Notes: generated by a model not told the origin, from the letters alone. Shown: positions 5,586-61,974, counted from the first letter of the stretch. The stretch is DNA of 64,000 nt from Anaerolineales bacterium (GCA_034430425.1 DAOUEK010000031.1:62702-126701); one strand, 5' to 3'. A program made the numbers and translations.

Positions 5586-6821
5586 ATGGAAGAAATGAAA
5601 CTCGAACAACAAGTCGACTTGTTGATGCAAGGGACGGAATACGGAGATAAACATCTCAAGCAATCGATGCGAGATGAATTGCTTTCTCGCCTCAAACAGG
5701 TCAAGAGAGAGGGACGCACGCTGCGGGTGTACTGTGGATTCGATCCACGTACAACGGATCTTCATCTCGGCCATACGGTTCCGATGCGGAAACTGCGTCA
5801 GTTCCAAGATTTGGGCCATGAGGTCATTTTCTTGATTGGCCGCTTTACATCGTTGGTCGGCGATCCCTCCGATAAAGATAAAGTACGTGCACAATTATCG
5901 CCGGAGGAGGCGATCAAGAACGCGGAGAGCTACGCGAACCAGGCGTTTCGCATCCTCGATCCGGATCGCACAAGAATTGAATACAACGACACGTGGTTAT
6001 CGAAACTGACTTTCGCGGACCTCATTCATCTGGCCTCGAATTTCACCATACAGCAGTTCCTTTCCCGGGATGCATTCCGCAAACGCTGGGATCAGGATGA
6101 TCCGGTATATCTGCACGAGTTCTTCTACGCATTGATGCAAGGATATGATGCCTTTCACTTGAAGACCGATGTCCAGGTTGGCGGAACCGATCAACTTTTC
6201 AACATCGTCACTGCCGCCCGTAAGTTAATGGAATCGCTGGGAGAGATGCCGAACATTGCCATCATTCTCGGCATCCTCCCCGGTACCGACGGTGTGGTGA
6301 AGATGAGCAAATCCCTGGGAAACCACATCCCGTTGAACACAACGCCGGAGGACATGTATGGCAAGGTGATGAGCGTGCCCGACGCTGCGATGGGAGACTT
6401 CTTCCGGCTGGTAACACGCTGGACGCCTCCGGAGATCGAAGCGATCGAAAACGATTTGAATGCCGGCAAATCCCATCCCAGGGATGTGAAGATGAAGCTC
6501 GCTCGGGAGATCGTTGGTATCTATTACGGCGAGGAAGCCGTAAAGCCGGCCGAAGATACCTTTAGGCAGATTTTCCAGCAGCAAGAGGCGCCAAGCAACA
6601 TACCGGATTTCGTCGTACAACAAGGTACATTGTTGGTGGCGATCATGAAGGATGCCGGATTGGTAAAGAGTAACAGCGAGGCTCGCCGTTTGGTCAAGCA
6701 AAAAGGTGTACGCCTGGACGATGTCGTCGTCGAGGATGCCGATCAGATTATCGAGATCAAAGAGTCGGTCGTACTGCGGGTGGGGAAACGGCGCTTTGTA
6801 CGTTTGATGCCGGATAAGTGA
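5586..6821 (+). CDS. tyrS: Tyrosine--tRNA ligase
   Basis: HIGH motif as DLHLGHTVP, KMSKS as VKMSKSLGN, C-terminal S4 domain (SNSEARRLVKQKGVRLD). GGAG lies 9 nt upstream of the ATG. Confidence 0.93.
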   Translation: MEEMKLEQQVDLLMQGTEYGDKHLKQSMRDELLSRLKQVKREGRTLRVYCGFDPRTTDLHLGHTVPMRKLRQFQDLGHEVIFLIGRFTSLVGDPSDKDKVRAQLSPEEAIKNAESYANQAFRILDPDRTRIEYNDTWLSKLTFADLIHLASNFTIQQFLSRDAFRKRWDQDDPVYLHEFFYALMQGYDAFHLKTDVQVGGTDQLFNIVTAARKLMESLGEMPNIAIILGILPGTDGVVKMSKSLGNHIPLNTTPEDMYGKVMSVPDAAMGDFFRLVTRWTPPEIEAIENDLNAGKSHPRDVKMKLAREIVGIYYGEEAVKPAEDTFRQIFQQQEAPSNIPDFVVQQGTLLVAIMKDAGLVKSNSEARRLVKQKGVRLDDVVVEDADQIIEIKESVVLRVGKRRFVRLMPDK

Positions 6822-6913
6822 AATTCGATTGGAATCATGCGAATTCGCAAATAAACGGAAGGGATCTTCATCAAGAAGAGCCCTTTTCGATTTACAGGAT
6901 TGTTTTCACCAGC

Positions 6914-8365
6914 TTAGCCTTTAATCACGACGAGCGGTTTGAGACGCGCCACCTTCTTTGCAATCCCTGCTTCAGAGACGACATCGACTACACTGTCTAC
7001 GTCTTTATAGGCTTGCGGCGCTTCCTCCGCCAGACCCGACATCGACCCGGCGCGGATGTGAATGCCTTGATTCTCGAGCTTGGTCAGCAGCTGGTCGCCG
7101 CGCACGGAGCGTTTCGCCTGTCTGCGGCTCATCGTTCGCCCGGCGCCATGACAGGAGGATCCAAATGCCAGGGACATACTTTCCTCCGTGCCCAGCAGAA
7201 CCCATGATCCTGTCCCCATGCTGCCGGGAACCAGAACCGGTTGACCCAACGCTCGATATTTTTCTGGTAGATCTTCGAATCCAGGACCGAAGGCACGTGT
7301 CGCTCCCTTACGGTGTACGCAGAGGGTGCGTTCCTCTCCGTCGATGCGGTGTTGTTCGATCTTTCCCATGTTATGAGCGATATCGTAGACCAAAGAAAGG
7401 TCCCAATTGCTGACTTTGCCGGCCAGGACTTCCTCGAAGGCTGTACGGGCGTGATGGGTGAGGACCTGGCGATTGGCAAAGGCGTAATTGGCCGCACAGG
7501 CCATGGCGGCGAAATAACGTTTGCCTTCGGGAGAATTCAACGGCGCACAAACGAGCTCACGATCGGGGAGTTGGATGTTGTAGCGCCTGACGGCATTCTG
7601 CAGCTCGCGCACGTAATCCGAACATACCTGATGACCCAAACCACGCGAACCACAGTGAATCTGAACGGCCAGATTGCCAACCTGCAAACCCATCGCTTCT
7701 GCTGCTTCTGGATGGAAGACATCATCAATGATGTCGACTTCGATGAAATGGTTGCCCGCTCCCAATGTCCCTAATTGCGGCCGGCCTCGCTGTTTGGCGC
7801 GATCACTTACGCAACCTGGATCGGCATCCTCCAGGCACCCACATTCTTCCGTTCTACGCACATCATCGGAGGTCGCGAATCCATTTCTCTCCGTCCACCC
7901 AGAACCCAGGCGCAGCACATTCTCGAGAGCTTTGGCAGTTAGCCGGACGCTGCCTTTCCCGCCAACGCCGCTCGGACAATGTGCATATAAAGCATTCGCC
8001 AGATCATCCAGCCAGGGCTCGGCTTCATCTGCGGAGATCTCACTCGCCAGGACACGCACGCCGCAGTTGATATCGTAGCCAATGCCACCGGGAGAGATTA
8101 CGCCATCGGGCAGATTGGTAGCCGCCACACCGCCAATCGGAAAGCCATAACCCTGGTGAACATCCGGCATCACCACAACATGACTCACGAGGCCGGGGAG
8201 CGTCGCTGCGTTGATCGCTTGCTCGATCGAACGATCACCAAGAGTGGCTTCAAGGATTTTTTCGCTGGCGAAAATGCGCACAGGCACGCGCATGTCGTCG
8301 CGGAATGATTGGGGAATTTCCCAGGTTACGGGATTAAGACGAATAAAATCTTGTTTCCGCATCAA
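6914..8365 (-). CDS. rtcB: RNA 3'-phosphate ligase RtcB
   Basis: [31 protein letters not shown] and SCHGAGR motifs. 483 aa. Confidence 0.93.
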
Positions 8366-8377
8366 ACGTTCCTCCCT

Positions 8378-8809
8378 TTACACATCAAAAACAAGAGTTG
8401 TGGTAAAACCTTCGTCCGTCGCCTCGATTTTTAGATCGTAGAAGGTTACCGCTTTGATTTCCTTATTCATTTCTGCGAGAGGTGTTTCACGAACACTTGC
8501 TCTGAGCTGCCCATTTTTCACTTGATGAACCTCGATGCCAGTGTAATTTACGTCGTTGGTCTCTATATTGAATAGCAGCTCCTCCAGCCAGGCGACCAGC
8601 AAGGTTTCCTTATCGATCGCGGCCAGTTCGATGTGCTTTATATTCGTTTCTCCAGGGCGTGAAGATGCCTGCATCAAGCGCAGCATCCCCAGCGCAGCGT
8701 TTTCGAACAACGACTCGATGGTTTTCCCGCCAACGCGGATAGCCCAGTCGGCGGTGTGTTCGATCTCCTCGAAAAAACCTTCCTGGTTGTGAAAATTGGA
8801 TTCGCCCAT
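8378..8809 (-). CDS. Archease (RtcB accessory protein family)
   Basis: 143 aa. EHTADWAIRVGG...FENAALGM and a C-terminal beta region typical of archease. It sits 12 nt upstream of rtcB on the same strand. Confidence 0.8.
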   Translation of the reverse strand: MGESNFHNQEGFFEEIEHTADWAIRVGGKTIESLFENAALGMLRLMQASSRPGETNIKHIELAAIDKETLLVAWLEELLFNIETNDVNYTGIEVHQVKNGQLRASVRETPLAEMNKEIKAVTFYDLKIEATDEGFTTTLVFDV

Positions 8810-8947
8810 CTTCTCACTTTTCCGGCATCTATATAGTATTATATGGCAGGATTGATTCTCTTCATGATCCGGTGAGCTTGTCGTGGTGGTATAGTCCGGA
8901 AGTCCTATAGGGTTTATGGAATCTAGGCAGTCGCTTATAATTTACAC

Positions 8948-9799
8948 ATGGATGACCAACTTCACACTTTAGCAAGAACCATTCAACTGGCAATCCACGA
9001 AACTGTAAAACTCCTGCCGTGGCGCGATTTCTCTGTTTCCACACTTGCCCATCAAATTGCCACCGAGGTGGTGGCCACAATGCGGGCCGGTGCTGAATCA
9101 CGTCAATATGCCCCGGATCAATTCACGTTGACTATTCATCCCCATGAAACCGGCGAATTGCAGGCTGTAAAACCAGAGATTCAACATGACTTGGCCTCCA
9201 ATCTCCAACAAGCATTGAAGGAATGCAATCTGGATTTTACCAGGGAGCCACATATCACTTTGGCGACAGACCCCACGCTTAAGAAAGGTGAGATACGGGT
9301 AATCGCCTGGCACAGTGCGGATCCTACGGAGATCACATCCCATCCAATGCCTGAGAGCGCTTTCCAATCCGATCGGCCCGAGACGAACGCGTTCCTCGTT
9401 GTTGAAGGGAGGCGCCACTTTCCGCTGAACAAGGCGGTGATCGACATCGGTCGTCTAGTGGATAACGATCTTGTATTGGATGGTCATCATGTTTCACGGA
9501 GGCATGCGCAAATTCGTTCTCACCAGGGACGATTTCAAATTGTCGATCTCGATTCGATGGCAGGCGTCAAGGTGAATGGCCGATTCATTCAAGAACAATT
9601 TCTCTTAGCTGGTGATGTGATCGCATTGGCTGATGTTGAGTTGGTTTATGCGGAAGGGGCGGAAGGTCCACCTGCTGCAACACCTCCATATAGCCCACTC
9701 TCGGATACTATTGATGATCGTAATGAAATCACCCCACTCGATATGAAAAAAAAGGAACTCGATGACGATACTGCACCGACGGGATCAATGGAAAAGTGA
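8948..9799 (+). CDS. FhaA-like protein (DUF3662-type N-domain + C-terminal FHA), copy 1
   Basis: REPHITLATDPTLKKGEIRVIAWH (FhaA N-domain signature), then FHA: IDIGRLVDNDLVLDGHHVSRRHAQI...GVKVNG...GDVIALADVELVY. Confidence 0.85.
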   Translation: MDDQLHTLARTIQLAIHETVKLLPWRDFSVSTLAHQIATEVVATMRAGAESRQYAPDQFTLTIHPHETGELQAVKPEIQHDLASNLQQALKECNLDFTREPHITLATDPTLKKGEIRVIAWHSADPTEITSHPMPESAFQSDRPETNAFLVVEGRRHFPLNKAVIDIGRLVDNDLVLDGHHVSRRHAQIRSHQGRFQIVDLDSMAGVKVNGRFIQEQFLLAGDVIALADVELVYAEGAEGPPAATPPYSPLSDTIDDRNEITPLDMKKKELDDDTAPTGSMEK

Positions 9800-9824: not shown

Positions 9825-10655
9825 ATGTGTAATATGAAAGAGCAGTTGAATCGATTAGAAGAACGAATCGAAGGTCTTGTCGAGGGGGCTTTAGGCCGAT
9901 TGCTTGGAGCGGAGATCCAACCCACTACGCTTGCGAGTCAATTGGCTCGAGCGATGATTGATGGCGTTCGAAATGGAAATGGCGATAAATTACTGGCGCC
10001 GGATCGGTATGCCCTGACCTTCAATCCTGTCGCAGTAGACATGTTGCTGGAAAAAATACCTGATTTGCGCGAAGACCTTGCGACAGGCTTATTGGAGATA
10101 GTACGTTCCAGTGGTTATAACCTCTCCCGTGAACCGCATATTACAATCGCCGCAGATCCGACACTGTCGGATCACGAGGTGCGCGTTATCGCCTGGCATA
10201 GTGAAACACTGATCGAATCGACCAAAGGAATGTCGCTGGACTTAAACCGGGAACCGGGGGAGCTGCCGATCGGTGCGTATCTCATCGTAAGCGGAACACG
10301 CCATTTCCCGTTGGATCGTCCCTTGATCAATATCGGACGCCGCCTCGATAATCACCTGATTCTGGATGAGCCCCAAGTATCCAGAACCCACGCCCAATTG
10401 CGGCTGCGAGAGTCACGCTTTGTTCTCTTCGATCTGGGATCGACCTCCGGAACGCGTGTGAACGATCGCTTGGCAAAACAGCATGTCTTGCAGCCGGGCG
10501 ATGTGATTACAATTGCCAACACCCGGCTTGTGTATGGAGAAGACCCCGAAGGACCTCCTGATGAAACCCCATCTTACCATCCCCCATTTCCACCTCGCCC
10601 AGCGGGGGATCAGCCAACCAGTACGACTCTAAAAAAGGATCAAATGGATCAGTGA
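9825..10655 (+). CDS. FhaA-like protein (DUF3662-type N-domain + FHA), copy 2 (tandem paralog)
   Basis: REPHITIAADPTLSDHEVRVIAWH, then INIGRRLDNHLILDEPQVSRTHAQL...GTRVND...GDVITIANTRLVY. Same architecture as copy 1. Alternative start at 9834. Confidence 0.85.
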   Translation: MCNMKEQLNRLEERIEGLVEGALGRLLGAEIQPTTLASQLARAMIDGVRNGNGDKLLAPDRYALTFNPVAVDMLLEKIPDLREDLATGLLEIVRSSGYNLSREPHITIAADPTLSDHEVRVIAWHSETLIESTKGMSLDLNREPGELPIGAYLIVSGTRHFPLDRPLINIGRRLDNHLILDEPQVSRTHAQLRLRESRFVLFDLGSTSGTRVNDRLAKQHVLQPGDVITIANTRLVYGEDPEGPPDETPSYHPPFPPRPAGDQPTSTTLKKDQMDQ

Positions 10656-11074
10656 ACCTGGATGTTCTCCTGCTCGCGCTTCGATTACTGGCCGCGCTGA
10701 TACTCTACGTATTTATTGGAGGCGTGGTGTATGTACTCTGGCGGGACCTACGTGCTACCAGCTTATATGCACAACAGATCCCCTCCGCATTTCTCATCGT
10801 CGAGGGGCTTCCTGAGGAATCCTGTCGGTTTACACTACAAGAGGAGAACATCATTGGACGAGCGGCTGAGAATACGATTCCGATTCTAGATGAGACTGTC
10901 TCCACACGTCATGCAAGATTGGCATTTTACAAAGGTCAGTGGCTATTGGAGGATATGGGGTCCCGGAATGGGACGCAAGTTAACGATATCCCTGTGAACG
11001 AACCCATGGTATTGACTGATGGGGATCGAATTCAATTGGGAAAAGTGGTTGCCGGATTCGAGACAGTCCGATGA
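10652..11074 (+). CDS. Membrane-anchored FHA protein (FhaB/FipA-like)
   Basis: The GTG start overlaps the upstream stop. One N-terminal TM helix (LLLALRLLAALILYVFIGGVVYVLW), then FHA: IIGRAAENTIPILDETVSTRHARL...SRNGTQVND. Confidence 0.8.
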   Translation: MNLDVLLLALRLLAALILYVFIGGVVYVLWRDLRATSLYAQQIPSAFLIVEGLPEESCRFTLQEENIIGRAAENTIPILDETVSTRHARLAFYKGQWLLEDMGSRNGTQVNDIPVNEPMVLTDGDRIQLGKVVAGFETVR

Positions 11075-11207: not shown

Positions 11208-12074
11208 ATGCAGACCAAACCTATACTCGGAGTTATCGGTGGATCCGGTTTGTATACCATGGATGGCATTATCAATGGAGAATATCACGATCTGGACACA
11301 CCCTTTGGAGCACCATCATCCCCTTTGTTCGTGGGCGAACGGGGTGGAAAGCGAGTCGTATTTCTGGCACGACATGGAATTGGGCACGTCTACACACCGG
11401 CAGAAGTGAATTATCGTGCCAATATCTATGCGATGAAAATGCTGGGTGTTGATCGTATTGTTGCCGTTAGTGCCTGCGGGTCTTTGCGTGAAGACTATGC
11501 CCCCGGGGAGATTGTCGTTCCCGATCAATTATTCGATCGAACGGAAAACCGCCCTCGTTCTTTCTTCGATGAAGGCATCATTGCACAGGTTACGCCTGCT
11601 GATCCTTTCTGTCCGCATTTATCACAGGCGTTGGCGAAAAGCGTCGAAGCAGCCGGCGGCTGTATTCACCATGGCGGCACCTACATCACCATACCGGGCC
11701 CACGCTTCTCAACCAGGGCGGAATCCAATACCTATCGTGCCTGGGGGATGTCGATCATAGGCATGACGACCTGCCCAGAAGCTTTCCTGGCACGTGAGGC
11801 GGAGATGTGCTATGCCGTTATGGCGCACGTCACAGATTACGATGTCTGGCATACCTCCGAAGATCCGGTGACTGTGGACGGTATCGTGCAGATTTTACGT
11901 GCAAATATAAAGTTGGCACAGGCTGCGGTGTATCTCCTTGTCGATGAATTGGATTCGTCACGAACATGCCAATGCACTAATGCACTCAGAGATACGCTGC
12001 TCACCGATCCGGAAAAACTCACTCCCGAAGTAAAAAGGAGGCTGGGCATTCTTGTCGAGCGTTATCTTCCGTAA
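11208..12074 (+). CDS. mtnP: S-methyl-5'-thioadenosine phosphorylase
   Basis: GVIGGSGLY, FLARHGIGH and IIGMTTCPEAFLAREAE, the PNP/MTAP family pattern. GGAGGG lies upstream of the ATG. Confidence 0.88.
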   Translation: MQTKPILGVIGGSGLYTMDGIINGEYHDLDTPFGAPSSPLFVGERGGKRVVFLARHGIGHVYTPAEVNYRANIYAMKMLGVDRIVAVSACGSLREDYAPGEIVVPDQLFDRTENRPRSFFDEGIIAQVTPADPFCPHLSQALAKSVEAAGGCIHHGGTYITIPGPRFSTRAESNTYRAWGMSIIGMTTCPEAFLAREAEMCYAVMAHVTDYDVWHTSEDPVTVDGIVQILRANIKLAQAAVYLLVDELDSSRTCQCTNALRDTLLTDPEKLTPEVKRRLGILVERYLP

Positions 12075-14721
12075 CCAGATCGAGGAGAACGATCGCCGCG
12101 AGGCCCTGCTGTTGGGTCTCGCTTTCACTTTCCTCTGTCTATCGTCCGTTGCTTTATATCTTGCGCCGGCTGTCAAAACGCGAACGGTGGATGCATTGGG
12201 TACACGCTGGCAGCACTTCAGTGTTTTGCCTGTTTGGTTAACAGCTGCGTATTTGCTGCGTAAGTCGCTGAAAAAAGTACGCCCGCTTCGTGATCCGTTT
12301 CTCCTGCCGATTGGATTGCTGCTGAGCGGTTGGGGGCTATTGACCATCTGGAGGCTAGCACCCGGATTCGGGCTGCGGCAGTTGGGCTGGTTTGTTATTG
12401 GGATCGGGGCGATGTTAAGTGTATTCCGGCTTCCTGCGGACCTGAGTTGGCTGCGGCGATACCGCTACTTGTGGCTGCTTGTGGGTGTTGCCCTGACGGC
12501 CTTAACGCTTTTACTGGGCACCAATCCATCCAGTATCGAACCTCGCTTATGGCTGGGATGTTGCGGTATCTATCTTCAACCTTCCGAACCCCTACGACTG
12601 TTGCTGATCTCTTTTTTCGCTTCTTACCTGGCAGATCGTATGGCGTTTCGCCTGGTGGAGCACTCGCCAATCTGGTCGCTTGTCTATGCACCGCTAATCC
12701 TAGTGTGGGGGTTATCCGTCGCCTTGCTCGTCATGCAGGGGGACGTGGGTGCAGGGGCGCTCTATCTGGTTATCCTCGCTGCGCTGCTGTATTTGGTGAT
12801 GGGAAAGCGGAATGTTCTTGTTATCGCCATTATCTTTCTGGTAATCGGCGGCCTGGTTGGCTTTGAGATGTCCGCACTTGTACACAACCGCGTACAGGCC
12901 TGGCTTGATCCCTGGATCGACCCCAGCGGAGGTTCCTATCAATTGGTCCAGGCGCTTATTGCCATCGCATCCGGTGGTGTCTTCGGGCGCGGTCCGGGAA
13001 TTGGTTCTCCCGGGTTCGTCCCCGTTATTCATTCGGATTTCGTATTTACAGCGATCGTAGAGGAGTGGGGGCTTCTAGGTGGGTTGGGCCTAATTGGCCT
13101 GCTTGCCATCCTCGTCACTCGCGGTTTTCGGGTTGCGACCAAATCCAGCGACCCATTTAAGGTGATCCTCTCTTCCGGTTTGACGATTGGCCTGGCCTTT
13201 CAGGCGATCCTCATCATCGGAGGGAATATCCGATTGCTGCCTTTGGTTGGCGTGACGCTGCCTTTTGTCTCCTACGGCGGCTCATCTCTCGTGACCAGTA
13301 TGATCGCTTTGTCTTTTCTGCTGCTGCTATCCGGCGGCTCAGCAGGATCAGATCCTTACGCAGAGCCACTGCAAAGGATTCATGGCGGGATCATGGCCGC
13401 CTGGGTGTGCTTGGTCGTACTGCTCGGGTGGTGGACGCTGTACCGCGCTCCGGTATTAACGTCACGTACGGATAATCCACGCAGGGCGGTATCCGAGCTG
13501 TACAATTTGCGCGGACGCATCGTTGATCGCTCAGGCGAAATCTTGGCGATGTCGACCGGCGACCAGGGGGCATATGAACGAGTCTATCCGGTCCCATGGG
13601 CATCAACCGTGACCGGATTCAATTCACTGGCATATGGCCAAATCGGTGTCGAACGAACGATGGATAAAGTACTGCGTGGGGAAGAAGGTTATCCATTGTC
13701 GATAAGTTGGTGGAACCGGCTTCTCAATGGGTATCCACCACCGGGATTAAACGTACGTCTGACTATCGATGGGAGCTTGCAGCGCAATGCCTGGGAGGCA
13801 CTGCAGGGCGAGACAGGCGCGATTGTGATACTCGATCCGCGGCAAGGTGAAATCCTGGCCTTGGTCTCCTCACCGGCGTTTGATCCCAATCGATTGGATG
13901 TAGATTGGCGGACGCTGATCAGTCGGGAAGATGCACCCTTGCTAAATCGCGCCACGCAAGGCCTGTATCAACCTGGAATGATATTCGCTCCGTTTACATT
14001 GGCCTGGTCGGAAACGAGCGGGTTGGTACATGTGGAGGACCAGGTGCTGGATGCAACCCGTGCGGTTTCCCTGGACGGCATGTCCTTGACTTGTATGATG
14101 GACTTACCCGATGTGGAAGAAGTTAATTATGGTCAGGTTCTGCGCGCTGGATGCCCTGGTCCTATCGCGGAATTGGGGACAAATCTGGGAGCAGATGGGC
14201 TGGAGGAAATGGCGCAGGCCTTTGAATTCACGCGTCCTCCTGCGATTCGAATCGAAACCGCCCCGATAATGGCCGTCGTGATGGGTTCTACTCCGTTGGA
14301 TTGGCAGGCCGCTGCGATCGGGCAGGGCGATCTGACGATCACACCGTTGCAGGTGGCCCGAGCCTTCAGCGCTCTTATCACAGATGGTTATTTACCCGCT
14401 TTACGCATTGTCTCTGCGGTAAAGGATGCGAATGGCCGCTGGCAGGAAGTCGAATCTCTCGGTGTGCGGGATCAAGTGATAGGCGCCGAAATTAGTGTAA
14501 AAATCCGTGCAGCGTTAGTAAGTGATTCTGGCTCGCTGCTTGGTTTTTCGGCTCGAGCGATCGCGGGGTCGGAAGAAGAGAGCTTGAGCTGGTATGTTTG
14601 TGCCCGTGTAGACGGATCGGACAATGTGCAGCTGATTTTGGTTGTTTTAGAAAACGCATCTGATGCACGCGCGAAAGCGATCGGATTATCGTTACTCGAT
14701 TCACGCCTGCCAGCCCCTTGA
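12052..14721 (+). CDS. Fusion protein: SEDS peptidoglycan polymerase (RodA/FtsW family) + class-B penicillin-binding-protein module
   Basis: The N-terminal ~430 aa is polytopic with SEDS motifs (YLQPSEPLRLLL, YQLVQALIAIASGGVFGRGPG, IHSDFVFTAIVEEWG). The C-terminal ~440 aa aligns to bPBPs (LDPRQGEILALVSSPAFDPN, NRATQGLYQPG..., IGQGDLTITPLQVARAF). The TTG start overlaps mtnP by 23 nt, so the true start may be slightly downstream. Confidence 0.85.
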   Translation: MSSVIFRNQIEENDRREALLLGLAFTFLCLSSVALYLAPAVKTRTVDALGTRWQHFSVLPVWLTAAYLLRKSLKKVRPLRDPFLLPIGLLLSGWGLLTIWRLAPGFGLRQLGWFVIGIGAMLSVFRLPADLSWLRRYRYLWLLVGVALTALTLLLGTNPSSIEPRLWLGCCGIYLQPSEPLRLLLISFFASYLADRMAFRLVEHSPIWSLVYAPLILVWGLSVALLVMQGDVGAGALYLVILAALLYLVMGKRNVLVIAIIFLVIGGLVGFEMSALVHNRVQAWLDPWIDPSGGSYQLVQALIAIASGGVFGRGPGIGSPGFVPVIHSDFVFTAIVEEWGLLGGLGLIGLLAILVTRGFRVATKSSDPFKVILSSGLTIGLAFQAILIIGGNIRLLPLVGVTLPFVSYGGSSLVTSMIALSFLLLLSGGSAGSDPYAEPLQRIHGGIMAAWVCLVVLLGWWTLYRAPVLTSRTDNPRRAVSELYNLRGRIVDRSGEILAMSTGDQGAYERVYPVPWASTVTGFNSLAYGQIGVERTMDKVLRGEEGYPLSISWWNRLLNGYPPPGLNVRLTIDGSLQRNAWEALQGETGAIVILDPRQGEILALVSSPAFDPNRLDVDWRTLISREDAPLLNRATQGLYQPGMIFAPFTLAWSETSGLVHVEDQVLDATRAVSLDGMSLTCMMDLPDVEEVNYGQVLRAGCPGPIAELGTNLGADGLEEMAQAFEFTRPPAIRIETAPIMAVVMGSTPLDWQAAAIGQGDLTITPLQVARAFSALITDGYLPALRIVSAVKDANGRWQEVESLGVRDQVIGAEISVKIRAALVSDSGSLLGFSARAIAGSEEESLSWYVCARVDGSDNVQLILVVLENASDARAKAIGLSLLDSRLPAP

Positions 14722-16157: not shown

Positions 16158-16271
16158 AGACGCTGCTGAAAGAATTTCGTAACGAGGTGATACATGCTAC
16201 CTTCCTGGCATACCTCTCCCCTTGTTGCGAGGAACGGCGGCGATAATAAAAATAGGAGAGATGAAATCACA

Positions 16272-16844
16272 ATGGTTCGAATTCGATTACGCCGAGTAGG
16301 TTCTCGGAACCAACCAAGTTATAGGATCGTCGCGGCGGATAGAGAAAGTCCGCGGGACGGAAAATTCCTTGAGGTCATCGGTCACTATAATCCTCGCACC
16401 GATCCCTCGACGATTCAGATTGACGAAGCGCGTTTGTTTCACTGGATGAAGAATGGTGCACAGCCTTCTGATTCTGTTGTGTCTGCTCTCCGCTCTCTCG
16501 GAACGTGGGATCGCTGGGAGCGCTATAAAGGTGGCGAGAACCTGGAAAAACTGCTCAAGGAAGCCGAAGCAGCTATCCCAGAGGTCGATCCACGTACACG
16601 ACGGGATGATCTCATAGAAATGCGCGCTGCAAAGGAACAAAAGAAGAAAGATAAAGCAGAGCCTGAGAAGCCGGCAAAATCACAGAAAGAGACTGTACAG
16701 AAGCCGGAAGAAGACGAGGCCGAGAGCGAAGCGGAAGTCTCTGAAGAAACACCGGAAGAAAAAGCAGAGGCGGAGAGCGAAGAGGTAGAGGCCGAAGAAG
16801 ATACCCAGGAATCTGACGATTCGGAAGAAGAATCCGACGAGTAA
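16272..16844 (+). CDS. rpsP: 30S ribosomal protein S16 with ~100-aa acidic C-terminal extension
   Basis: ATG at 16272 (MVRIRLRRVGSRNQPSYRIV) with GGAGAG upstream. The core is about 88 aa. The tail is KKKDKAEPEKPAK...EAESEAEVSEETPEEKAEAESEEVEAEEDTQESDDSEEESDE. Confidence 0.9.
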   Translation: MVRIRLRRVGSRNQPSYRIVAADRESPRDGKFLEVIGHYNPRTDPSTIQIDEARLFHWMKNGAQPSDSVVSALRSLGTWDRWERYKGGENLEKLLKEAEAAIPEVDPRTRRDDLIEMRAAKEQKKKDKAEPEKPAKSQKETVQKPEEDEAESEAEVSEETPEEKAEAESEEVEAEEDTQESDDSEEESDE

Positions 16845-20106: not shown

Positions 20107-20595
20107 TTATTCGCTGTCTAGGATTTCGGGTGCTTGTTCGGTAATATTGAGGCGGTCGGCGGATAACTTGGCGATACCGTTTCGGGTCTGATTGACGAGA
20201 TGCAGCAGTTCTGCCTCGATCGCTCCCAGTGATTCGACAATATAATCATCCGCTTCACGACGGATCAATTCGGCGTCCGCTCGAGCTTGTGCCAGGATCT
20301 GTTCAGCCCTCGCTTGTGAAGCTTCCACAATAGCATCTCGAGCAACAACTTCTTCTGCGTTCTTCTTCGCCAGGGCGATCGTTCGATTGGCTTCTTCCTG
20401 TGCTTGTGCAAGTACGCGGTCACGCTGGGCAAGTACCTGTTGTGCTTTTTTTACTTCATCTGGAATCGAAATCCGCATCTGATCGATGATTTCCAGCATA
20501 CGATCTTCGTCAACCACAACGTTGTGGGTTAGTGGGATCGGTCTGCTTTCGTTGAATAACTCTTCCAACCGATCCACTAAATGTAGGATGTCCAT
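20107..20595 (-). CDS. Coiled-coil protein of unknown function (ATP-synthase-b-like heptad region)
   Basis: ATG at 20595 preceded by GGAGGAAAG. 162 aa, Ala/Glu/Gln-rich helix (AQQVLAQRDRVLAQAQEEANRTIALAKKNAEE...). Sits directly downstream of coaD. Confidence 0.7.
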   Translation of the reverse strand: MDILHLVDRLEELFNESRPIPLTHNVVVDEDRMLEIIDQMRISIPDEVKKAQQVLAQRDRVLAQAQEEANRTIALAKKNAEEVVARDAIVEASQARAEQILAQARADAELIRREADDYIVESLGAIEAELLHLVNQTRNGIAKLSADRLNITEQAPEILDSE

Positions 20596-20697
20596 ACTTT
20601 CCTCCGGTCCGTATTGCGGATTAGATAGGACCGCATTCTTGATGTTGCAAGGTTTAGGCCGAAGCGTACACTGATTAAGCTTTCCGGTCAACCCGCC

Positions 20698-30288: not shown

Positions 30289-31161
30289 TTAAGACGTATA
30301 TTTCTGTACGAGATAGTCGAATACCGGTTGATCGATTTTTCCGGCTTTAAGGTCCGTACGATCCTCGAAATTCTCGTTCCCGAGAAAATGTTGCAAGGCT
30401 TGCTTCGTCTCTTTATCGTAATTGCCGTGGATTGGGCCGCTGTAGTAGCCTTGAAGCTTCATGATTTCCTGTAATGCTGCAGCGATCTTGCCCTCGATTG
30501 TCAGCTCTTCGTCCTGCGGACTTTTGCCAAAATACAGCCGATGAAGTTTCAACAGACCCGATAACTGTGGAATGGGGTCGACGTGGTCATCCACGCGGTA
30601 ATCGATCCAGCGATCGTTTAAGCCGCCGTATCCCCCTTTGGGTTTGACGACGTATAGCGCCGCGCTTTGCCGTCCCCGGCGATCTCCGCCAGCCCGGTCC
30701 CCGGCCAGGAGCGTATTGAGCAAGCGTTCGGGGAAATCGCCTTCGAATTCCAGGTAAGCCTGGACCATTGCATCGAGAGTCTCCGGGCCGGTGAGAATAT
30801 TACCCTGAACCGCAAATTGCTCGCCGATTCGCCCGCCAGCCCATGCATGGCAGCTTTTTCCCGTAAATGTAGCTGCCTCTCCACATGCATCGATCAAGCC
30901 GACCTGTCGCTGATCTCGCTCCGGATCGTCTTTGAGCAGGCGATCGAGCGTTTTACTTGCACTCAGGCCATCTTCCATATATGAAAGTCCTCGAGGGCCA
31001 TAAGTTGTATTGGCATAGGATTGCGTAGCGATGGCGCCTGCATTTGCTTTCGCCCAGGGAACGACGGCGCCTACGGCCGGGAATTTCGAGGCTACTGCGA
31101 TTCCCCAAGCAGGTTCTTGCGGGTCATAGGCGACGATTGAAAAGGTTGCGATGTTATTCAA
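30289..31161 (-). CDS. DUF1028 (Ntn-hydrolase-like) protein with C-terminal peptidoglycan-binding-like domain
   Basis: N-terminus TFSIVAYDPQEPAWGIAVASKFPAVGAVVPW. C-terminus ALQEIMKLQGYYSGPIHGNYDKETKQALQHF resembles the PG_binding_1 repeat. Confidence 0.7.
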   Translation of the reverse strand: MNNIATFSIVAYDPQEPAWGIAVASKFPAVGAVVPWAKANAGAIATQSYANTTYGPRGLSYMEDGLSASKTLDRLLKDDPERDQRQVGLIDACGEAATFTGKSCHAWAGGRIGEQFAVQGNILTGPETLDAMVQAYLEFEGDFPERLLNTLLAGDRAGGDRRGRQSAALYVVKPKGGYGGLNDRWIDYRVDDHVDPIPQLSGLLKLHRLYFGKSPQDEELTIEGKIAAALQEIMKLQGYYSGPIHGNYDKETKQALQHFLGNENFEDRTDLKAGKIDQPVFDYLVQKYTS

Positions 31162-36993: not shown

Positions 36994-37728
36994 TTAGTCC
37001 ATACTATCGTTGATTTGAACCAGCACGGCAGTTATGTTGTCTTGACCGCCATTGGCGATAGCTGTTCGGATGAATTCATCGCAGCTTTCTTGTGGGGATT
37101 TGCCGCTACGAAGAATCGACCCAATCTCATCATCCGGCACCATGTCCGTCAGGCCGTCGGTACAAAGTAGGAGTTGATCCCCCAATTTCAAGCCGAGTTG
37201 GCGTGCTTCCGGCTCGATCTCATCGCTTGCCCCGAGTGCCTGGCTTAATGCTTGTCTGGGAGGCCACAGACTTGGATTCTCGGGGAGTACGCCTTCTCGC
37301 CTTGCTTGCCACAGGAGGGTGTGATCCTCGGTAAGAAGGCTGAGTTTGTTCTCGCGGTATAAATAGGCGCGGCTATCTCCGACGTGAGCGATCCAGGCTG
37401 GTTCAGCTGGGGATGGAATCCAGGCCAGCACGATGGTTGTTCCCATACGGATGTTGTTATCGGTTCCGCCGGCAGCAGCGTGGATGGCTTTATGGGCGGC
37501 GTTTATACTGGCGAGAATGGTTTCTTGTACAGGCTGATGATCGTTGGGGTTGTGCGTAGACAGGTATTCTTGAATCGTGCGGACGGCAATAAAACTTGCG
37601 ATTTCCCCAGCGATATGTCCTCCAATCCCGTCGGCTACTATATAGACGTTTAGATTTGTGTCGACTGAATAATTATCCTCGTTTTTTTCGCGCACAATCC
37701 CGGTGTCTGTAGCTGCGCCATATTCCAT
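36994..37728 (-). CDS. PP2C-family Ser/Thr protein phosphatase (Stp/PstP-like, cytoplasmic)
   Basis: TDTGIVREKNEDNY, VADGIGGH, LCTDGLTDMV, GGQDNITAVLV. Confidence 0.9.
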   Translation of the reverse strand: MEYGAATDTGIVREKNEDNYSVDTNLNVYIVADGIGGHIAGEIASFIAVRTIQEYLSTHNPNDHQPVQETILASINAAHKAIHAAAGGTDNNIRMGTTIVLAWIPSPAEPAWIAHVGDSRAYLYRENKLSLLTEDHTLLWQARREGVLPENPSLWPPRQALSQALGASDEIEPEARQLGLKLGDQLLLCTDGLTDMVPDDEIGSILRSGKSPQESCDEFIRTAIANGGQDNITAVLVQINDSMD

Positions 37729-58365: not shown

Positions 58366-59529
58366 TTACGGGATCGGGACAGAGGCCGGCTTCGCAGGTC
58401 GATAGGCGTCCCCGCCGCAAGTCCAATTCCAATCGGCGATAACGATGTTCTCGACGCTGCCGTTCGATGGGACGGTCACGGTTTTCAGTGCCTTGCCACA
58501 GGAAGGGTTGCTACCTGTATACCCGCCGGTGACATATGGTATGTCACCGACGCCTCTGGCATAGGCGACAACATGGTAATTCCCGGGTGGAACCGTCATT
58601 CTGTAATAGGGATGGGTCGGCGTGGAGTGGATCCACCACCAGGTGCCGTCGTCCAGGTTGAAAAACATGACCACAACAGGTGATTCGTGGTATGTGTAGG
58701 AGTCCTTCAGGTACGGAGGGGCGGAGGCCAAATCAACCATTCCGGATATCGTGCCGGGGATGCCACTCGATGTGCTGGATGTAGTTGCTGTTGCGAGAAC
58801 AACAGGCTCTGGCGGCAGTGCAGCCGGATCCCGCTGGATATACGGTAAGATCCAAATTGGGTTGTAGCGTGTACGATCACCCTTGGTACGCACGACAAGC
58901 GTAAATTCCACCGTTTGTCCGGCGAGTGCGCTGAGATCGACTTCAACTTCGGTATAGGCGCCGCTGGATGCATCGTGGTCGGAAATCGGCGACGGGCCTA
59001 TTTGAGGGGAAAGATCGTGAAAACCACCATAGCTATCGAAGTAGCTTAATCCAAATTCCACATTGCAGTCTGTATCGGAGGGTTGACAGGCAAGAATGGC
59101 GTGGAAGGTGTCACCTTCCCATACTTCAAGTGCTGGATAGTGACCGAAGATGCCGGCTAATCTTTCGTAAGCGGGGATGGTTATCAGCGAAGGCGCTTCG
59201 ACGAGGGTATCGCCAGATATTGTCGTGCCATCCAAGCGATCCACGTAACCGGCACCGGTATCGTCAGGATCACCGGGGCAGATCAAGTATTCACCGTTGT
59301 TCGACCATTGGGCAGTGCACATTGCCGCGACGAAATCGAGAACCACAGTCGATGGATCCGGAGTCGTCACCTCGAGTATCTGCGCTGTTGGGGTACTCGT
59401 TGGTTCCGGTGTATTTGTTTCGGTGGGGGGCGGTGGGATGGTGATTGTCGGCGTGGGTAGGCTGTCGGAGGGAGCGTTGCATGCAGCCAGTGTGAGGATG
59501 ACGGTGAGGATCAGAATAAAACGTTTCAA
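58366..59529 (-). CDS. Secreted lipoprotein of unknown function with Pro/Thr-rich linker
   Basis: Signal peptide plus lipobox LTLAAC. PTPTITIPPPPTETNTPEPTSTPT linker. Cys-containing middle domain. C-terminal GNYHVVAYARG beta-sandwich-like segment. Confidence 0.7.
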   Translation of the reverse strand: MKRFILILTVILTLAACNAPSDSLPTPTITIPPPPTETNTPEPTSTPTAQILEVTTPDPSTVVLDFVAAMCTAQWSNNGEYLICPGDPDDTGAGYVDRLDGTTISGDTLVEAPSLITIPAYERLAGIFGHYPALEVWEGDTFHAILACQPSDTDCNVEFGLSYFDSYGGFHDLSPQIGPSPISDHDASSGAYTEVEVDLSALAGQTVEFTLVVRTKGDRTRYNPIWILPYIQRDPAALPPEPVVLATATTSSTSSGIPGTISGMVDLASAPPYLKDSYTYHESPVVVMFFNLDDGTWWWIHSTPTHPYYRMTVPPGNYHVVAYARGVGDIPYVTGGYTGSNPSCGKALKTVTVPSNGSVENIVIADWNWTCGGDAYRPAKPASVPIP

Positions 59530-59824: not shown

Positions 59825-61447
59825 TTGATGAAATTAACCGCCAAAACACTACATCCCTTCCTGATTGCTGTATATCCCGTACTTGCGCTCGCTGCCAATA
59901 ATGCCCAGGAGATTCCACCAAGCCAGGCCTGGCGCGCGTTGCTATTGACGGAGATCGTAGTATTACTGATCCTCGTCCTGTTTCAGTGGGTTTATCACTC
60001 CTGGCAAAAAAGCGGTATCCTGGCTTCGACACTGATCTTGATTTTTTTTTCTTATGGACATGTTTATGCCATAATCGAAGACTTCACCATCGCTGGTTTC
60101 AATATCGGACGACATCGTTTCCTGTTATTACTATGCGTCAGCTTGGCGATGGGGGTCATTTGGTTTCTTCACAAGATTGAATCCCAACGTATGTGTGAAA
60201 TCGCCAGATCTCTCAATATATTCGGTCTCCTGGTTTTGATCTTTCCGCTCCTATCGCTGGTCGCCTTTGGCTTTCGTTTCCATAATATCGACTCGTCATT
60301 CTCACCGAATACGGAAACCTCCGATCTACATTTCGTAATGGAAGGCGAGCTTCCGGATATTTACTATATAATTCTCGATTCCTATGGCAGGGAGGATATC
60401 CTCCGGGATTTATATGGTATCGATAATTCCGGTTTTATCGAAGCACTCAAGCAGCGTGGTTTTTACGTCGCAGATCAAAGTATTCCCAATCATGTTGCCA
60501 CTGCATTTTCTCTCGCTTCGTCTTTGAACATGAACTACGTTCAGGATCTTGGAATCGAACTTCCACCGGGAACGTACCCTGGATCGCTTGTTGATCCGAT
60601 ACGCAGTAGCATCGTTCGAACTGAGCTGGAATCATTGGGTTATTCCGTGGTTGCACTCACAAGTGGGTGGGCAACCACTACGTTAATCGACGCAGATTAT
60701 TTCCTGTCTCCGGATATGTTGACGTCAGAATCGGGTTATAAATATAAAGAATATTGGCTGAATGATTTTGAAAGAATGCTGCTGGAGACTACAGTATTGC
60801 TTGTGCCTATCGATTATATCGAACGTGAAGTCGTGCAAGATAATCTACGCGAGCTCGCCAATTTCTCTGGATGGGAAGGCCACCGCCGGATTGTCCTGGC
60901 GGCTTTCGAGAATCTTAAAACCGTCCCGAATATTCAAGGACCAAAATTCATTTTTGCACACATCATCTCCCCGCATCGACCCTATCTCTTCGATTCTGAT
61001 GGTAATCGGGTTACCCAGTCAGGCCCGACAACGCTTGATGATTTGGGCTCAACCATCGCGCCCAAAGATGAGGTCAGCTATTATGCTGACCAGATGATGT
61101 ATATTAATACATTGACATTGGAAACCATTGACACCATTTTGGCGAACTCGCCCCGCAAGCCGGTGATCATCCTTCAATCCGACACCGGCCCAGCATTCGA
61201 TTTTGACTGGGAGCAACCTGATCCGATAAACCTGCAGACGAAGATTGCCATGCTGAGTGCCTTTTACTTTCCTGATGGATGTGATGGCAATTTGTATTCG
61301 CAGATATCTCCAGTAAATATCTTTCGAGTCCTCTTTAACTGCTATTTTGGTGGAGATTATGCGTTGTTGGTGGATCGGACGTTTTTTACAGACCATCACA
61401 GCAAGACGGAATACCAATTCATCCCGGTTGAGGATTTACTCCAATAA
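59825..61447 (+). CDS. Polytopic membrane protein with extracytoplasmic alkaline-phosphatase-superfamily (LtaS/sulfatase-like) domain
   Basis: About 5 N-terminal TM helices, then LPDIYYIILDSYGRED...HVATAFSLASSLN...FAHIISPHRPY, which resembles the sulfatase/phosphotransferase metal and nucleophile region. The family call is tentative. Confidence 0.55.
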   Translation: MMKLTAKTLHPFLIAVYPVLALAANNAQEIPPSQAWRALLLTEIVVLLILVLFQWVYHSWQKSGILASTLILIFFSYGHVYAIIEDFTIAGFNIGRHRFLLLLCVSLAMGVIWFLHKIESQRMCEIARSLNIFGLLVLIFPLLSLVAFGFRFHNIDSSFSPNTETSDLHFVMEGELPDIYYIILDSYGREDILRDLYGIDNSGFIEALKQRGFYVADQSIPNHVATAFSLASSLNMNYVQDLGIELPPGTYPGSLVDPIRSSIVRTELESLGYSVVALTSGWATTTLIDADYFLSPDMLTSESGYKYKEYWLNDFERMLLETTVLLVPIDYIEREVVQDNLRELANFSGWEGHRRIVLAAFENLKTVPNIQGPKFIFAHIISPHRPYLFDSDGNRVTQSGPTTLDDLGSTIAPKDEVSYYADQMMYINTLTLETIDTILANSPRKPVIILQSDTGPAFDFDWEQPDPINLQTKIAMLSAFYFPDGCDGNLYSQISPVNIFRVLFNCYFGGDYALLVDRTFFTDHHSKTEYQFIPVEDLLQ

Positions 61448-61482: not shown

Positions 61483-61974
61483 ATGAATCGATTGCTTTCC
61501 AGCTCTTTGATGATCTTTGTATATATCTTTTCTGCGATTGCGGGTGTGTTTATAGGTCTCACGATTGGGGGCGCAACATTTGGTGTGGCATTGGCTATCG
61601 TGCTGGCTTTCGGATTCGTACTAGTAATTGCCGCCGTGGAAATTGTCTTCAGGCGAAAGATTGCCGGCGACATCGAGCCGGCACAAGATTTCGCGCCAAT
61701 CCAGGATGTAGTGATTGTTGGTGGCAGGCTCCACAATAATTCGGATGAAATATCAAGCGAGGTGAAGGAAGTCTATCGACAATTGCTGAAAGACGCAGAC
61801 GATGACGGACGCCCGGATATACTTCAAGAGATAACAGCAAAGCAAGATGCAGCGGAAACGCTTGAAGCAGATCAAGTGCTTCAGTTACAGGAAGCAAAAC
61901 AAATGCTGGAAAGCGGATTGATCACCCGAGAGGCATATGCAGCAACCGTAAAACAGATTCTGGCAGCTGAATGA
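61483..61974 (+). CDS. Membrane protein with C-terminal SHOCT domain
   Basis: Two N-terminal TM helices. C-terminus AKQMLESGLITREAYAATVKQIL matches the SHOCT pattern. Confidence 0.65.
   Translation: MNRLLSSSLMIFVYIFSAIAGVFIGLTIGGATFGVALAIVLAFGFVLVIAAVEIVFRRKIAGDIEPAQDFAPIQDVVIVGGRLHNNSDEISSEVKEVYRQLLKDADDDGRPDILQEITAKQDAAETLEADQVLQLQEAKQMLESGLITREAYAATVKQILAAE

Follow-up and report, generated by a model that had tools for sequence, protein, structure and literature searches.

The 64,000-nucleotide stretch of DNA analysed here, from an uncultured bacterium of the Anaerolineales (Chloroflexota) (GCA_034430425.1, DAOUEK010000031.1:62702-126701; hereafter the window) encodes at 12052-14721, on the plus strand, an 889-residue protein in which a SEDS polymerase is fused to a PbpA-type penicillin-binding protein of class B (bPBP), and in which the three catalytic motifs of the transpeptidase, S-x-x-K, S-x-N and K-T/S-G, have all been replaced. 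More than 300 distinct Anaerolineae/Chloroflexota metagenome relatives also lack the catalytic residues, either as fusions or as PBP genes next to a SEDS gene, and from the sequences this dead state seems to have arisen several times. The explanation we favour, with a probability of about 0.7, is that the polymerase is permanently joined, via the membrane anchor, to its cognate PbpA-type bPBP with a lost active site, the pseudo-transpeptidase being kept as an activator or scaffold while cross-linking takes place in trans.

Loss of the transpeptidase motifs

An initial annotation of this DNA had described an apparently intact polymerase joined to a bPBP module without active-site motifs. Every peptide string that it quoted was found at the residue and nucleotide position assigned there, including the flanking block IGQGDLTITPLQVARAF (residues 756-772). 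Within NRATQGLYQPGMIFAPF (residues 632-648) the S-x-x-K position is occupied by M643-I-F-A646, within VLRAGCPGPIAELG (residues 696-709) the S-x-N position reads G700-C-P702, and within SARAIAGSEE (residues 833-842) the K-T/S-G position reads I837-A-G839. When the protein is aligned with Mycobacterium tuberculosis PbpA by phmmer (3un7, E 1e-30), pgMIFApf falls on pgSTFKvi and raGCPgp on ksCNta, which holds the S-C-N of PbpA. A profile built from 83 family members extends the alignment into the C-terminal third, where the l-a-g column of the family (I837-A838-G839) falls on the KTG of 4mnr (in GKTGTA) and 3un7. Two invariant residues, W847 and E867, fall respectively on the W of the canonical 'sWFvG' and on the E of the next strand. 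A Foldseek search with the AlphaFold2 model gave target-normalised TM-scores of 0.78-0.81 to PbpA and two actinobacterial transpeptidase domains. Since the single-sequence, family-profile and fold alignments agree, all three motifs are lost; the motif columns hold MIFA, GCP and IAG, and a genuine triad was not found in them.

Relocated motifs were also considered. A string scan found no K[TS]G anywhere in the protein, and the PBP half has a single S-x-x-K (SAVK, residues 788-791) and a single S-x-N (SDN, residues 856-858). Both were rejected as relocated motifs, being non-conserved and outside the cleft positions; S788 and K791 are each less than 70% conserved in the 83 homologues. The earlier remark that SAVK is the only S-x-x-K of the module and lies away from the catalytic position was thus correct. 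With the nucleophilic serine, the lysine, Ser-x-Asn and Lys-Thr-Gly all replaced, the domain would not be expected to form the acyl-enzyme needed for D,D-transpeptidation or penicillin binding. On sequence grounds the protein is therefore monofunctional, the catalytic residues of the transpeptidase being absent, and covalent beta-lactam binding is predicted to be absent because the nucleophile is gone.

Architecture of the fusion and state of the polymerase half

The open reading frame (ORF) begins with TTG and is continuous, and an 889-residue protein with 100% identity to its product is present in NCBI and JGI data (P0001, P0002). Three Pfam domains are found above their cut-offs: FTSW_RODA_SPOVE (PF01098) at residues 107-425 (3e-64, 217.7 bits against a cut-off of 26.4), PBP_dimer_2 (PF21922) at residues 487-568 (2e-11, 44.6 bits) and Transpeptidase (PF00905) at residues 589-824 (2e-21, 77.0 bits), the last matching its profile over positions 1-217 of 299 and no further. 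The AlphaFold2 model, made from 83 homologues, has a mean pLDDT of 87 and a pTM of 0.79, and in it a single helix (residues 437-464) connects the last SEDS helix with the ectodomain. Judged from the model, this helix is the bPBP membrane anchor, and the topology is that expected from directly fusing adjacent rodA and pbpA genes. AlphaFold2, Pfam and Foldseek together account for all three parts of a PbpA-type bPBP, namely anchor, pedestal and transpeptidase fold, so that a SEDS domain and a bPBP transpeptidase-fold domain share one polypeptide, an architecture already described (PMC12516126). Conservation is low in two parts of the protein: only 2 of the 80 columns of the N-terminal extension (residues 1-80) are invariant in the 83 homologues, the alignment to Thermus thermophilus RodA starting at about residue 95, and the linker and anchor (residues 427-466) are weakly conserved except for W460 and W461.

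The motifs of the polymerase are present in YLQPSEPLRLLL (residues 174-185), GGVFGRGPG (residues 308-316) and IHSDFVF (residues 326-332). Positions counted along an alignment with 6bar, the T. thermophilus RodA, equate E179 and R182, in the QPSEPLR loop, with E108 and K111, D231 with D152, and D329 with D255, the essential acidic residue of extracellular loop 4. E179, R182, D231 and D329 are invariant in the 83 homologues. Judged by this alignment, the SEDS half retains all the residues known as necessary for polymerisation and is apparently intact, in keeping with the Pfam domains and with the initial description of a natural SEDS-bPBP fusion. Neither NCBIfam equivalog assigns it to FtsW or RodA (TIGR02614 ftsW, 223.7 against a threshold of 337.5; TIGR02210 rodA, 187.9 against 336.7), and because neither threshold is reached we name it only as a SEDS polymerase; its synteny with FHA genes recalls the actinobacterial rodA locus.

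Distribution across the Anaerolineae

The 120 best homologues of the protein are 45-100% identical to it and 801-912 residues long (nearly all 865-900), and all of them contain a SEDS and a transpeptidase domain. The S-x-x-K lysine occurs in none of the 120; their S-x-N column reads GCP, GCA or ACP and their K-T-G column x-[TASV]-G, and the QPSE and (S/T)D motifs of the SEDS half are conserved. These homologues have likewise lost the motifs, and because all 120 come from independent assemblies and agree, errors of assembly or sequencing do not account for the substitutions.

When the PBP half was the query of an exhaustive HMMER search, 493 representative clusters (50% identity) were recovered at E<=1e-30, and 148 of the best 150 were aligned. 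About 146 of these 148 are without the catalytic S-x-x-K and S-x-N, and they include both fusions of about 880 residues and stand-alone proteins of about 450 residues. The few named stand-alone dead PBPs come from metagenome-assembled genomes of Anaerolineae; the gene for P0144, a stand-alone dead PBP, directly follows a separate SEDS gene and has an FHA-domain regulator and a Ser/Thr kinase in its neighbourhood. A split system of this type is seen at 6509-9335 of locus L011 (and in L012), where a gene for a 461-residue SEDS protein is followed by one for a 444-residue dead PbpA-like protein, and an FHA + Trans_reg_C regulator, a Ser/Thr kinase and a GH3 glycosidase are encoded just upstream.

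A second search, seeded with the nearest intact fusion (P0252, with STFK, SCN and KTG), listed 120 Anaerolineae/Chloroflexota fusions, 12 of them intact and 108 dead. Most of the 108 form a second dead subfamily, which reads PGAALQTV, AAACPAP and GVAVAG in the three motif regions. STFK, SCN and KTG are kept in only 12 among 240 fusions listed; these intact fusions (P0252, P0279-P0286, P0302, P0312 and P0322) read STFK, SCN (or SSN) and KTG. Two further proteins may be intermediates toward full motif loss: P0267 (491 residues) reads STFT, SCN and KTG, only the lysine being lost, and P0297 (897 residues) has STFH together with GCP. At the other extreme, a fusion of 808 residues from a groundwater Chloroflexi (L006, 7332-9755) has a transpeptidase-like domain about 80 residues shorter, in which the S-x-N helix and GCP region are gone, and this shortening is a further step in the erosion of the dead lobe. 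A distant candidate fusion from a tblastn summary, in Candidatus Metalachnospira gallinarum (L007, 9623-12831), was set aside because its SEDS ORF ends and the PBP part lies in another frame; it represents either adjacent genes or a frameshifted fusion. The initial annotation had taken the arrangement to be unusual. The motif loss on which it based this is real, but the loss is not peculiar to a single gene, being the majority state of a very large Anaerolineae family, both fused and split.

Selective constraint and phylogeny

Ratios of nonsynonymous to synonymous substitution rates (dN/dS) were calculated by the Nei-Gojobori method for the window gene against four orthologous loci and among three of those loci. 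They are 0.07-0.15 for the SEDS core, 0.07-0.25 for the anchor and pedestal, and 0.11-0.26 for the transpeptidase-like domain (about 0.2; pairs with dS 0.2-1.4). The dead domain is therefore constrained, although less so than the polymerase. Invariant columns in the 83 homologues follow the same order, with 60 of 350 in the SEDS core (17%), 15 of 122 in the pedestal (12%) and 13 of 301 in the transpeptidase-like domain (4%).

The comparison with intact fusions shows where the rate has changed. At equal SEDS divergence, the ratio of transpeptidase to SEDS identity is about 1.0 among intact fusions, in which the pedestal is the least conserved part, and about 0.7-0.8 among dead fusions, in which the pedestal is more conserved than the transpeptidase fold. 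Profile scores show this pattern as well: PF00905 gives 77-105 bits for dead and 196-217 bits for intact proteins (the full profile being covered in the intact ones), the pedestal profile PF21922 gives 41-52 against 32-36 bits, and the SEDS profile PF01098 is unchanged, at 218-256 and 237-268 bits.

A midpoint-rooted neighbour-joining tree of the SEDS and pedestal columns contains two main clades. The first holds 85 sequences, all dead, the window protein among them; the second holds 62 sequences that are all dead and a group of 16 comprising all 12 intact fusions and 4 dead ones. The intact sequences are thereby confined to one small subclade, next to at least three groups made up wholly of dead proteins. 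Regaining a catalytic triad once it is lost is not plausible, and the topology of this rough tree therefore implies that the loss took place independently at least three or four times. The earlier proposal that the PBP half had turned into a retained, non-catalytic module fits these results, that is, the purifying selection, the rate shift relative to intact fusions and a pedestal that now outconserves the transpeptidase fold.

Comparison with known systems

The fusion itself is not new. A catalogue of 117 natural SEDS-bPBP fusions, or 'bifunctional bPBPs', has been published, with examples such as the 931-residue protein of Senegalimassilia faecalis and the 947-residue protein of Rhodococcus jostii (PMC12516126). 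They share the domain order of the window protein, with SEDS followed by a PBPA-type pedestal and a transpeptidase fold. They are treated as bifunctional, whereas the window protein is without transpeptidase catalytic residues, and the article does not look at active-site motifs (PMC12516126). The fusion had initially been presented as direct evidence for the SEDS-bPBP pair; it is real, but with such proteins already catalogued it does not count as new evidence. Our literature searches returned no report of a naturally dead bPBP paired with a SEDS protein, nor of the trait in Anaerolineae (including Anaerolinea thermophila), and the clade-wide loss of the active site in SEDS-bPBP fusions appears to be unreported.

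M. tuberculosis PbpA (Rv0016c; 3un7, 3lo7, 3upo) is the best fold match of the PBP half and among its two best sequence matches, with a family-profile E-value of 9e-53 beside the phmmer and TM values given above. Both have a short PBP_dimer_2 pedestal and a cysteine in the S-x-N motif. Where they differ is that PbpA is a separate protein in which STFK, SCN and KTG are intact, and the titles of its PDB entries describe acylation by penicillin, imipenem and ceftriaxone, whereas the PBP half studied here is fused and all of its motifs are gone. The best profile match is 4mnr (2e-53), one of the transpeptidase domains of Eggerthella lenta and Atopobium parvulum (4mnr, 4jbf, 4n1x) that have PGSTFK and GKTG and were solved as beta-lactam complexes; judging by the depositors' name for them, 'peptidoglycan glycosyltransferase', these crystallised domains would themselves derive from fusions. 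Also comparable are the intact Anaerolineae fusions, which have the same architecture, length and taxon labels as the dead ones and a SEDS-core identity to them of about 45-55%. In them the transpeptidase domain changes no faster than the SEDS core, unlike that of the dead fusions.

Proposed role of the pseudo-transpeptidase

In the explanation we prefer, the ectodomain would have been kept because the SEDS polymerase needs the membrane helix and pedestal of its partner for allosteric activation and stability. The dead transpeptidase lobe would be a structural or regulatory part of the activation switch, and a further enzyme (a second bPBP, a class A PBP or an L,D-transpeptidase) would cross-link the new glycan strands in trans. 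An activator role for the PBP half is suggested by published work on RodA-PBP2 and FtsW-FtsI. The partnership is obligatory here because of the fusion, the rate-shift data fit a role as activator or scaffold, and acting as a built-in activator of the polymerase is probably the only reason why the module has been retained.

Published precedents exist. Inactive bPBPs still support their SEDS partner while another PBP cross-links in the cases of Bacillus subtilis PBP2B/PBP3 and Clostridioides difficile SpoVD/PBP3, as one study summarises (PMC12516126). According to another, the body of the bPBP is needed by the SEDS machine and its transpeptidase chemistry can be supplied in trans (PMC12713402), and Enterococcus faecalis Pbp4 is reported to supply transpeptidase activity to FtsW-PbpB (PMC12217480). 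These cases concern laboratory mutants or drug-treated active enzymes, whereas the Anaerolineae state is natural, fixed, ancient and recurrent.

Several points weigh against this explanation. The activator role of the pedestal was taken from systems of Proteobacteria, Thermus and Firmicutes, whose pedestal is of another kind (PF03717). A trans-acting cross-linking enzyme was not found in the window, to which the search was confined, a Pfam scan of nearly all its ORFs giving no other PBP, glycosyltransferase or L,D-transpeptidase. The deletion of about 80 residues in L006 means that at least one lineage can do without part of the lobe, and the tree from which the number of losses was counted carries no bootstrap support.

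A bolder proposal, which we regard as doubtful, is that in much of the Anaerolineae the FHA-linked SEDS synthase has given up D,D-transpeptidation permanently and several times over, with cross-linking left to unrelated enzymes (e.g. L,D-transpeptidases) or hardly occurring at all. If this were true, these filamentous and abundant bacteria would polymerise glycan without coupling it to 4-3 cross-linking, and the synthase would have an inherent insensitivity to beta-lactams. Nature would also have demonstrated that the essential role of the bPBP in a SEDS pair is allosteric and not catalytic.

Alternative explanations

The dead lobe may instead have acquired a new non-catalytic job of its own, as a sensor of stem peptide or nascent glycan or as a dock for a trans-acting transpeptidase through bPBP-bPBP contact. 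C. difficile PBP3 and SpoVD are reported to interact in this way within a single complex (PMC12516126), and the lobe is full-length in nearly all of the more than 300 clusters and under purifying selection. The replacements are themselves conserved, with P647 invariant and, within GCP, an invariant cysteine and a proline kept in at least 90%, which resembles a settled alternative state and not drift. On the other side, the 13 invariant columns of the lobe are mostly structural (glycines, prolines and the cysteine pair), the cleft region shows no new cluster of conserved polar residues, and L006 has deleted part of the lobe. We consider this explanation unlikely.

Less probable again is that the transpeptidase-like domain is evolutionary baggage, with no function in wall synthesis and kept only because its removal would destabilise the fusion as it folds or inserts into the membrane. 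In favour of this, the domain evolves faster than any other part of the protein, its catalytic residues have been lost recurrently and L006 carries a shortened variant. A dN/dS of about 0.2 at dS 0.2-1.4 is far from neutral, however, and stand-alone dead PBP genes persist beside SEDS genes although they could be lost without disturbing the polymerase.

We find it very improbable that the module is still an enzyme with a non-canonical nucleophile, for instance a thiol transpeptidase, carboxypeptidase or endopeptidase using Cys701. C681 and C701 are both invariant in the 83 homologues and C701 lies inside the former S-x-N motif, but the cysteine is ancestral, S-C-N being found in M. tuberculosis PbpA and in the intact Anaerolineae fusions as well, and Cys701 is for this reason unlikely to be a new nucleophile. 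In the known geometry of S-x-N, its middle residue faces away from the cleft. C681, 20 residues upstream, would fit a structural disulfide with C701, which we consider probable from the sequences, PbpA having a cysteine at a place similar to that of C681; and no conserved general base (Lys, His, Tyr or Glu) substitutes for the lost lysines.

That the fusion or its substitutions are an artefact of assembly, frameshift or sequencing can be dismissed, as the architecture of 885-895 residues and the substitutions recur in hundreds of independently assembled contigs (NCBI, JGI, ENA, Logan), synteny is kept across six loci, and the frame of the ORF is unbroken, with a strong Shine-Dalgarno sequence ahead of it; this was the error that the initial annotation had itself considered, and the independent homologues and synteny rule it out.

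Gene neighbourhood and other features of the window

The coordinates of the fusion, its parts and the adjoining genes are collected in Table 1.

Table 1. Features of the fusion gene and of the genes upstream of it, in window coordinates
Feature	Position	Strand	Evidence
FhaA-like genes, two (FhaA_N + FHA)	8948-9799, 9825-10655	+	Pfam
FhaB-like gene (FHA alone)	10652-11074	+	Pfam
PNP_UDP_1 phosphorylase-superfamily gene	11208..12074	+	3' end overlaps fusion start by 23 nt
Shine-Dalgarno AGGAGG	12036..12041	+	10 nt 5' of TTG start, read from sequence
Whole ORF, 889 aa: SEDS polymerase + PbpA-type pseudo-transpeptidase	12052..14721	+	ORF call, Pfam
N-terminal extension, residues 1-80, two predicted extra helices before canonical SEDS core	12052..12291	+	AlphaFold2 helices 9-43, 54-76
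SEDS (FtsW/RodA/SpoVE) glycosyltransferase core, residues 81-430	12292..13341	+	PF01098, 217.7 bits
E179 and R182 of QPSEPLR loop (E108 and K111 of T. thermophilus RodA)	12586..12597	+	alignment to 6bar
D231 (D152 of T. thermophilus RodA)	12742..12744	+	alignment to 6bar
D329 in IHSDFVF (D255 of T. thermophilus RodA)	13036..13038	+	alignment to 6bar
Short cytoplasmic linker and single membrane helix (bPBP anchor, from model), residues 427-466	13330..13449	+	AlphaFold2 helix 437-464
Pedestal region, residues 467-588, including PBP_dimer_2 487-568	13450..13815	+	PF21922, 44.6 bits
Transpeptidase-fold domain without catalytic residues, residues 589-889	13816..14718	+	PF00905, Foldseek
M643-I-F-A646 at S-x-x-K position	13978..13989	+	phmmer and profile alignments to PbpA
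C681, invariant cysteine, probable disulfide partner of C701	14092..14094	+	invariant in 83 sequences
G700-C-P702 at S-x-N position	14149..14157	+	aligned to S-C-N of PbpA
I837-A-G839 at K-T/S-G position	14560..14568	+	profile alignment to GKTGTA of 4mnr, 3un7

The genes are arranged in the order FhaA, FhaA, FhaB-like, PNP_UDP_1 phosphorylase, fusion, ffh, rpsP and rimM, and this order is kept in six loci (L001-L006), down to 41% identity of the fusion. The tandem FhaA-like paralogues are about 37-41% identical to each other; both are present in L001-L005, and L006 seemingly has one. All six loci have the PNP_UDP_1 gene in this place, after the FHA genes and before the fusion, which suggests that it is co-transcribed with the wall synthase.

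In Actinobacteria, the corresponding cluster has the order fhaA-fhaB-pstP-rodA-pbpA-pknA-pknB. The window resembles it, and the M. tuberculosis PbpA/RodA locus in particular, in having the SEDS part upstream of the PBP part and FhaA/FhaB genes nearby, and differs in the PNP_UDP_1 gene inserted before the fusion and in being without adjacent phosphatase or kinase genes. The sole gene found for a PP2C-type Ser/Thr phosphatase (36994-37728, minus strand) is 22 kb away from the FHA cluster and, though unlinked to it, could correspond to PstP. No Pkinase domain was found in a scan of nearly all window ORFs, some small ones excepted, and neither the N-terminus nor the cytoplasmic linker, which is short and poorly conserved, shows a conserved threonine. 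The FHA-domain genes suggest, from gene order alone, phospho-threonine-dependent regulation as in Actinobacteria, and this is the weakest step of the explanation we favour.

The only other wall-related protein seen in the window is a DUF1028 protein with a C-terminal PG_binding_2 domain (30289-31161, minus strand). A gene pair for RtcB RNA ligase and archease (6914-8809, minus strand) lies directly upstream of the FHA cluster, divergent from it, and is kept in L001-L005. The ORF for ribosomal protein S16 (16194-16844, plus strand) encodes 216 residues, with the S16 domain confined to residues 34-92 and followed by a long C-terminal extension; tblastn matches in relatives reach only its first ~140 residues. 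Four ORFs of 163-540 residues, at 59825-61447 (plus), 58366-59529 (minus), 61483-61974 (plus) and 20107-20691 (minus), gave no Pfam match at E<=1e-5.

Implications

SEDS-bPBP pairs are core bacterial wall-building machines and main targets of beta-lactams. To our knowledge, the question whether such a pair depends on the bPBP for chemistry or for switching on the polymerase has been approached solely through engineered mutants. The Anaerolineae offer a large, natural and repeatedly evolved family in which the chemistry is gone and the protein body, especially the pedestal, has been kept. This lends evolutionary support to the activator model, and it provides a ready set of sequences for mapping the bPBP surfaces that are important in SEDS activation. 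Most of the family is wrongly described by database labels such as 'bifunctional bPBP' and 'penicillin-binding transpeptidase domain-containing protein'. For the organisms themselves, the prediction is that the Anaerolineae, abundant members of wastewater, sediment and digester communities, would cross-link their wall by other means and would be partly insensitive to beta-lactams at this synthase.

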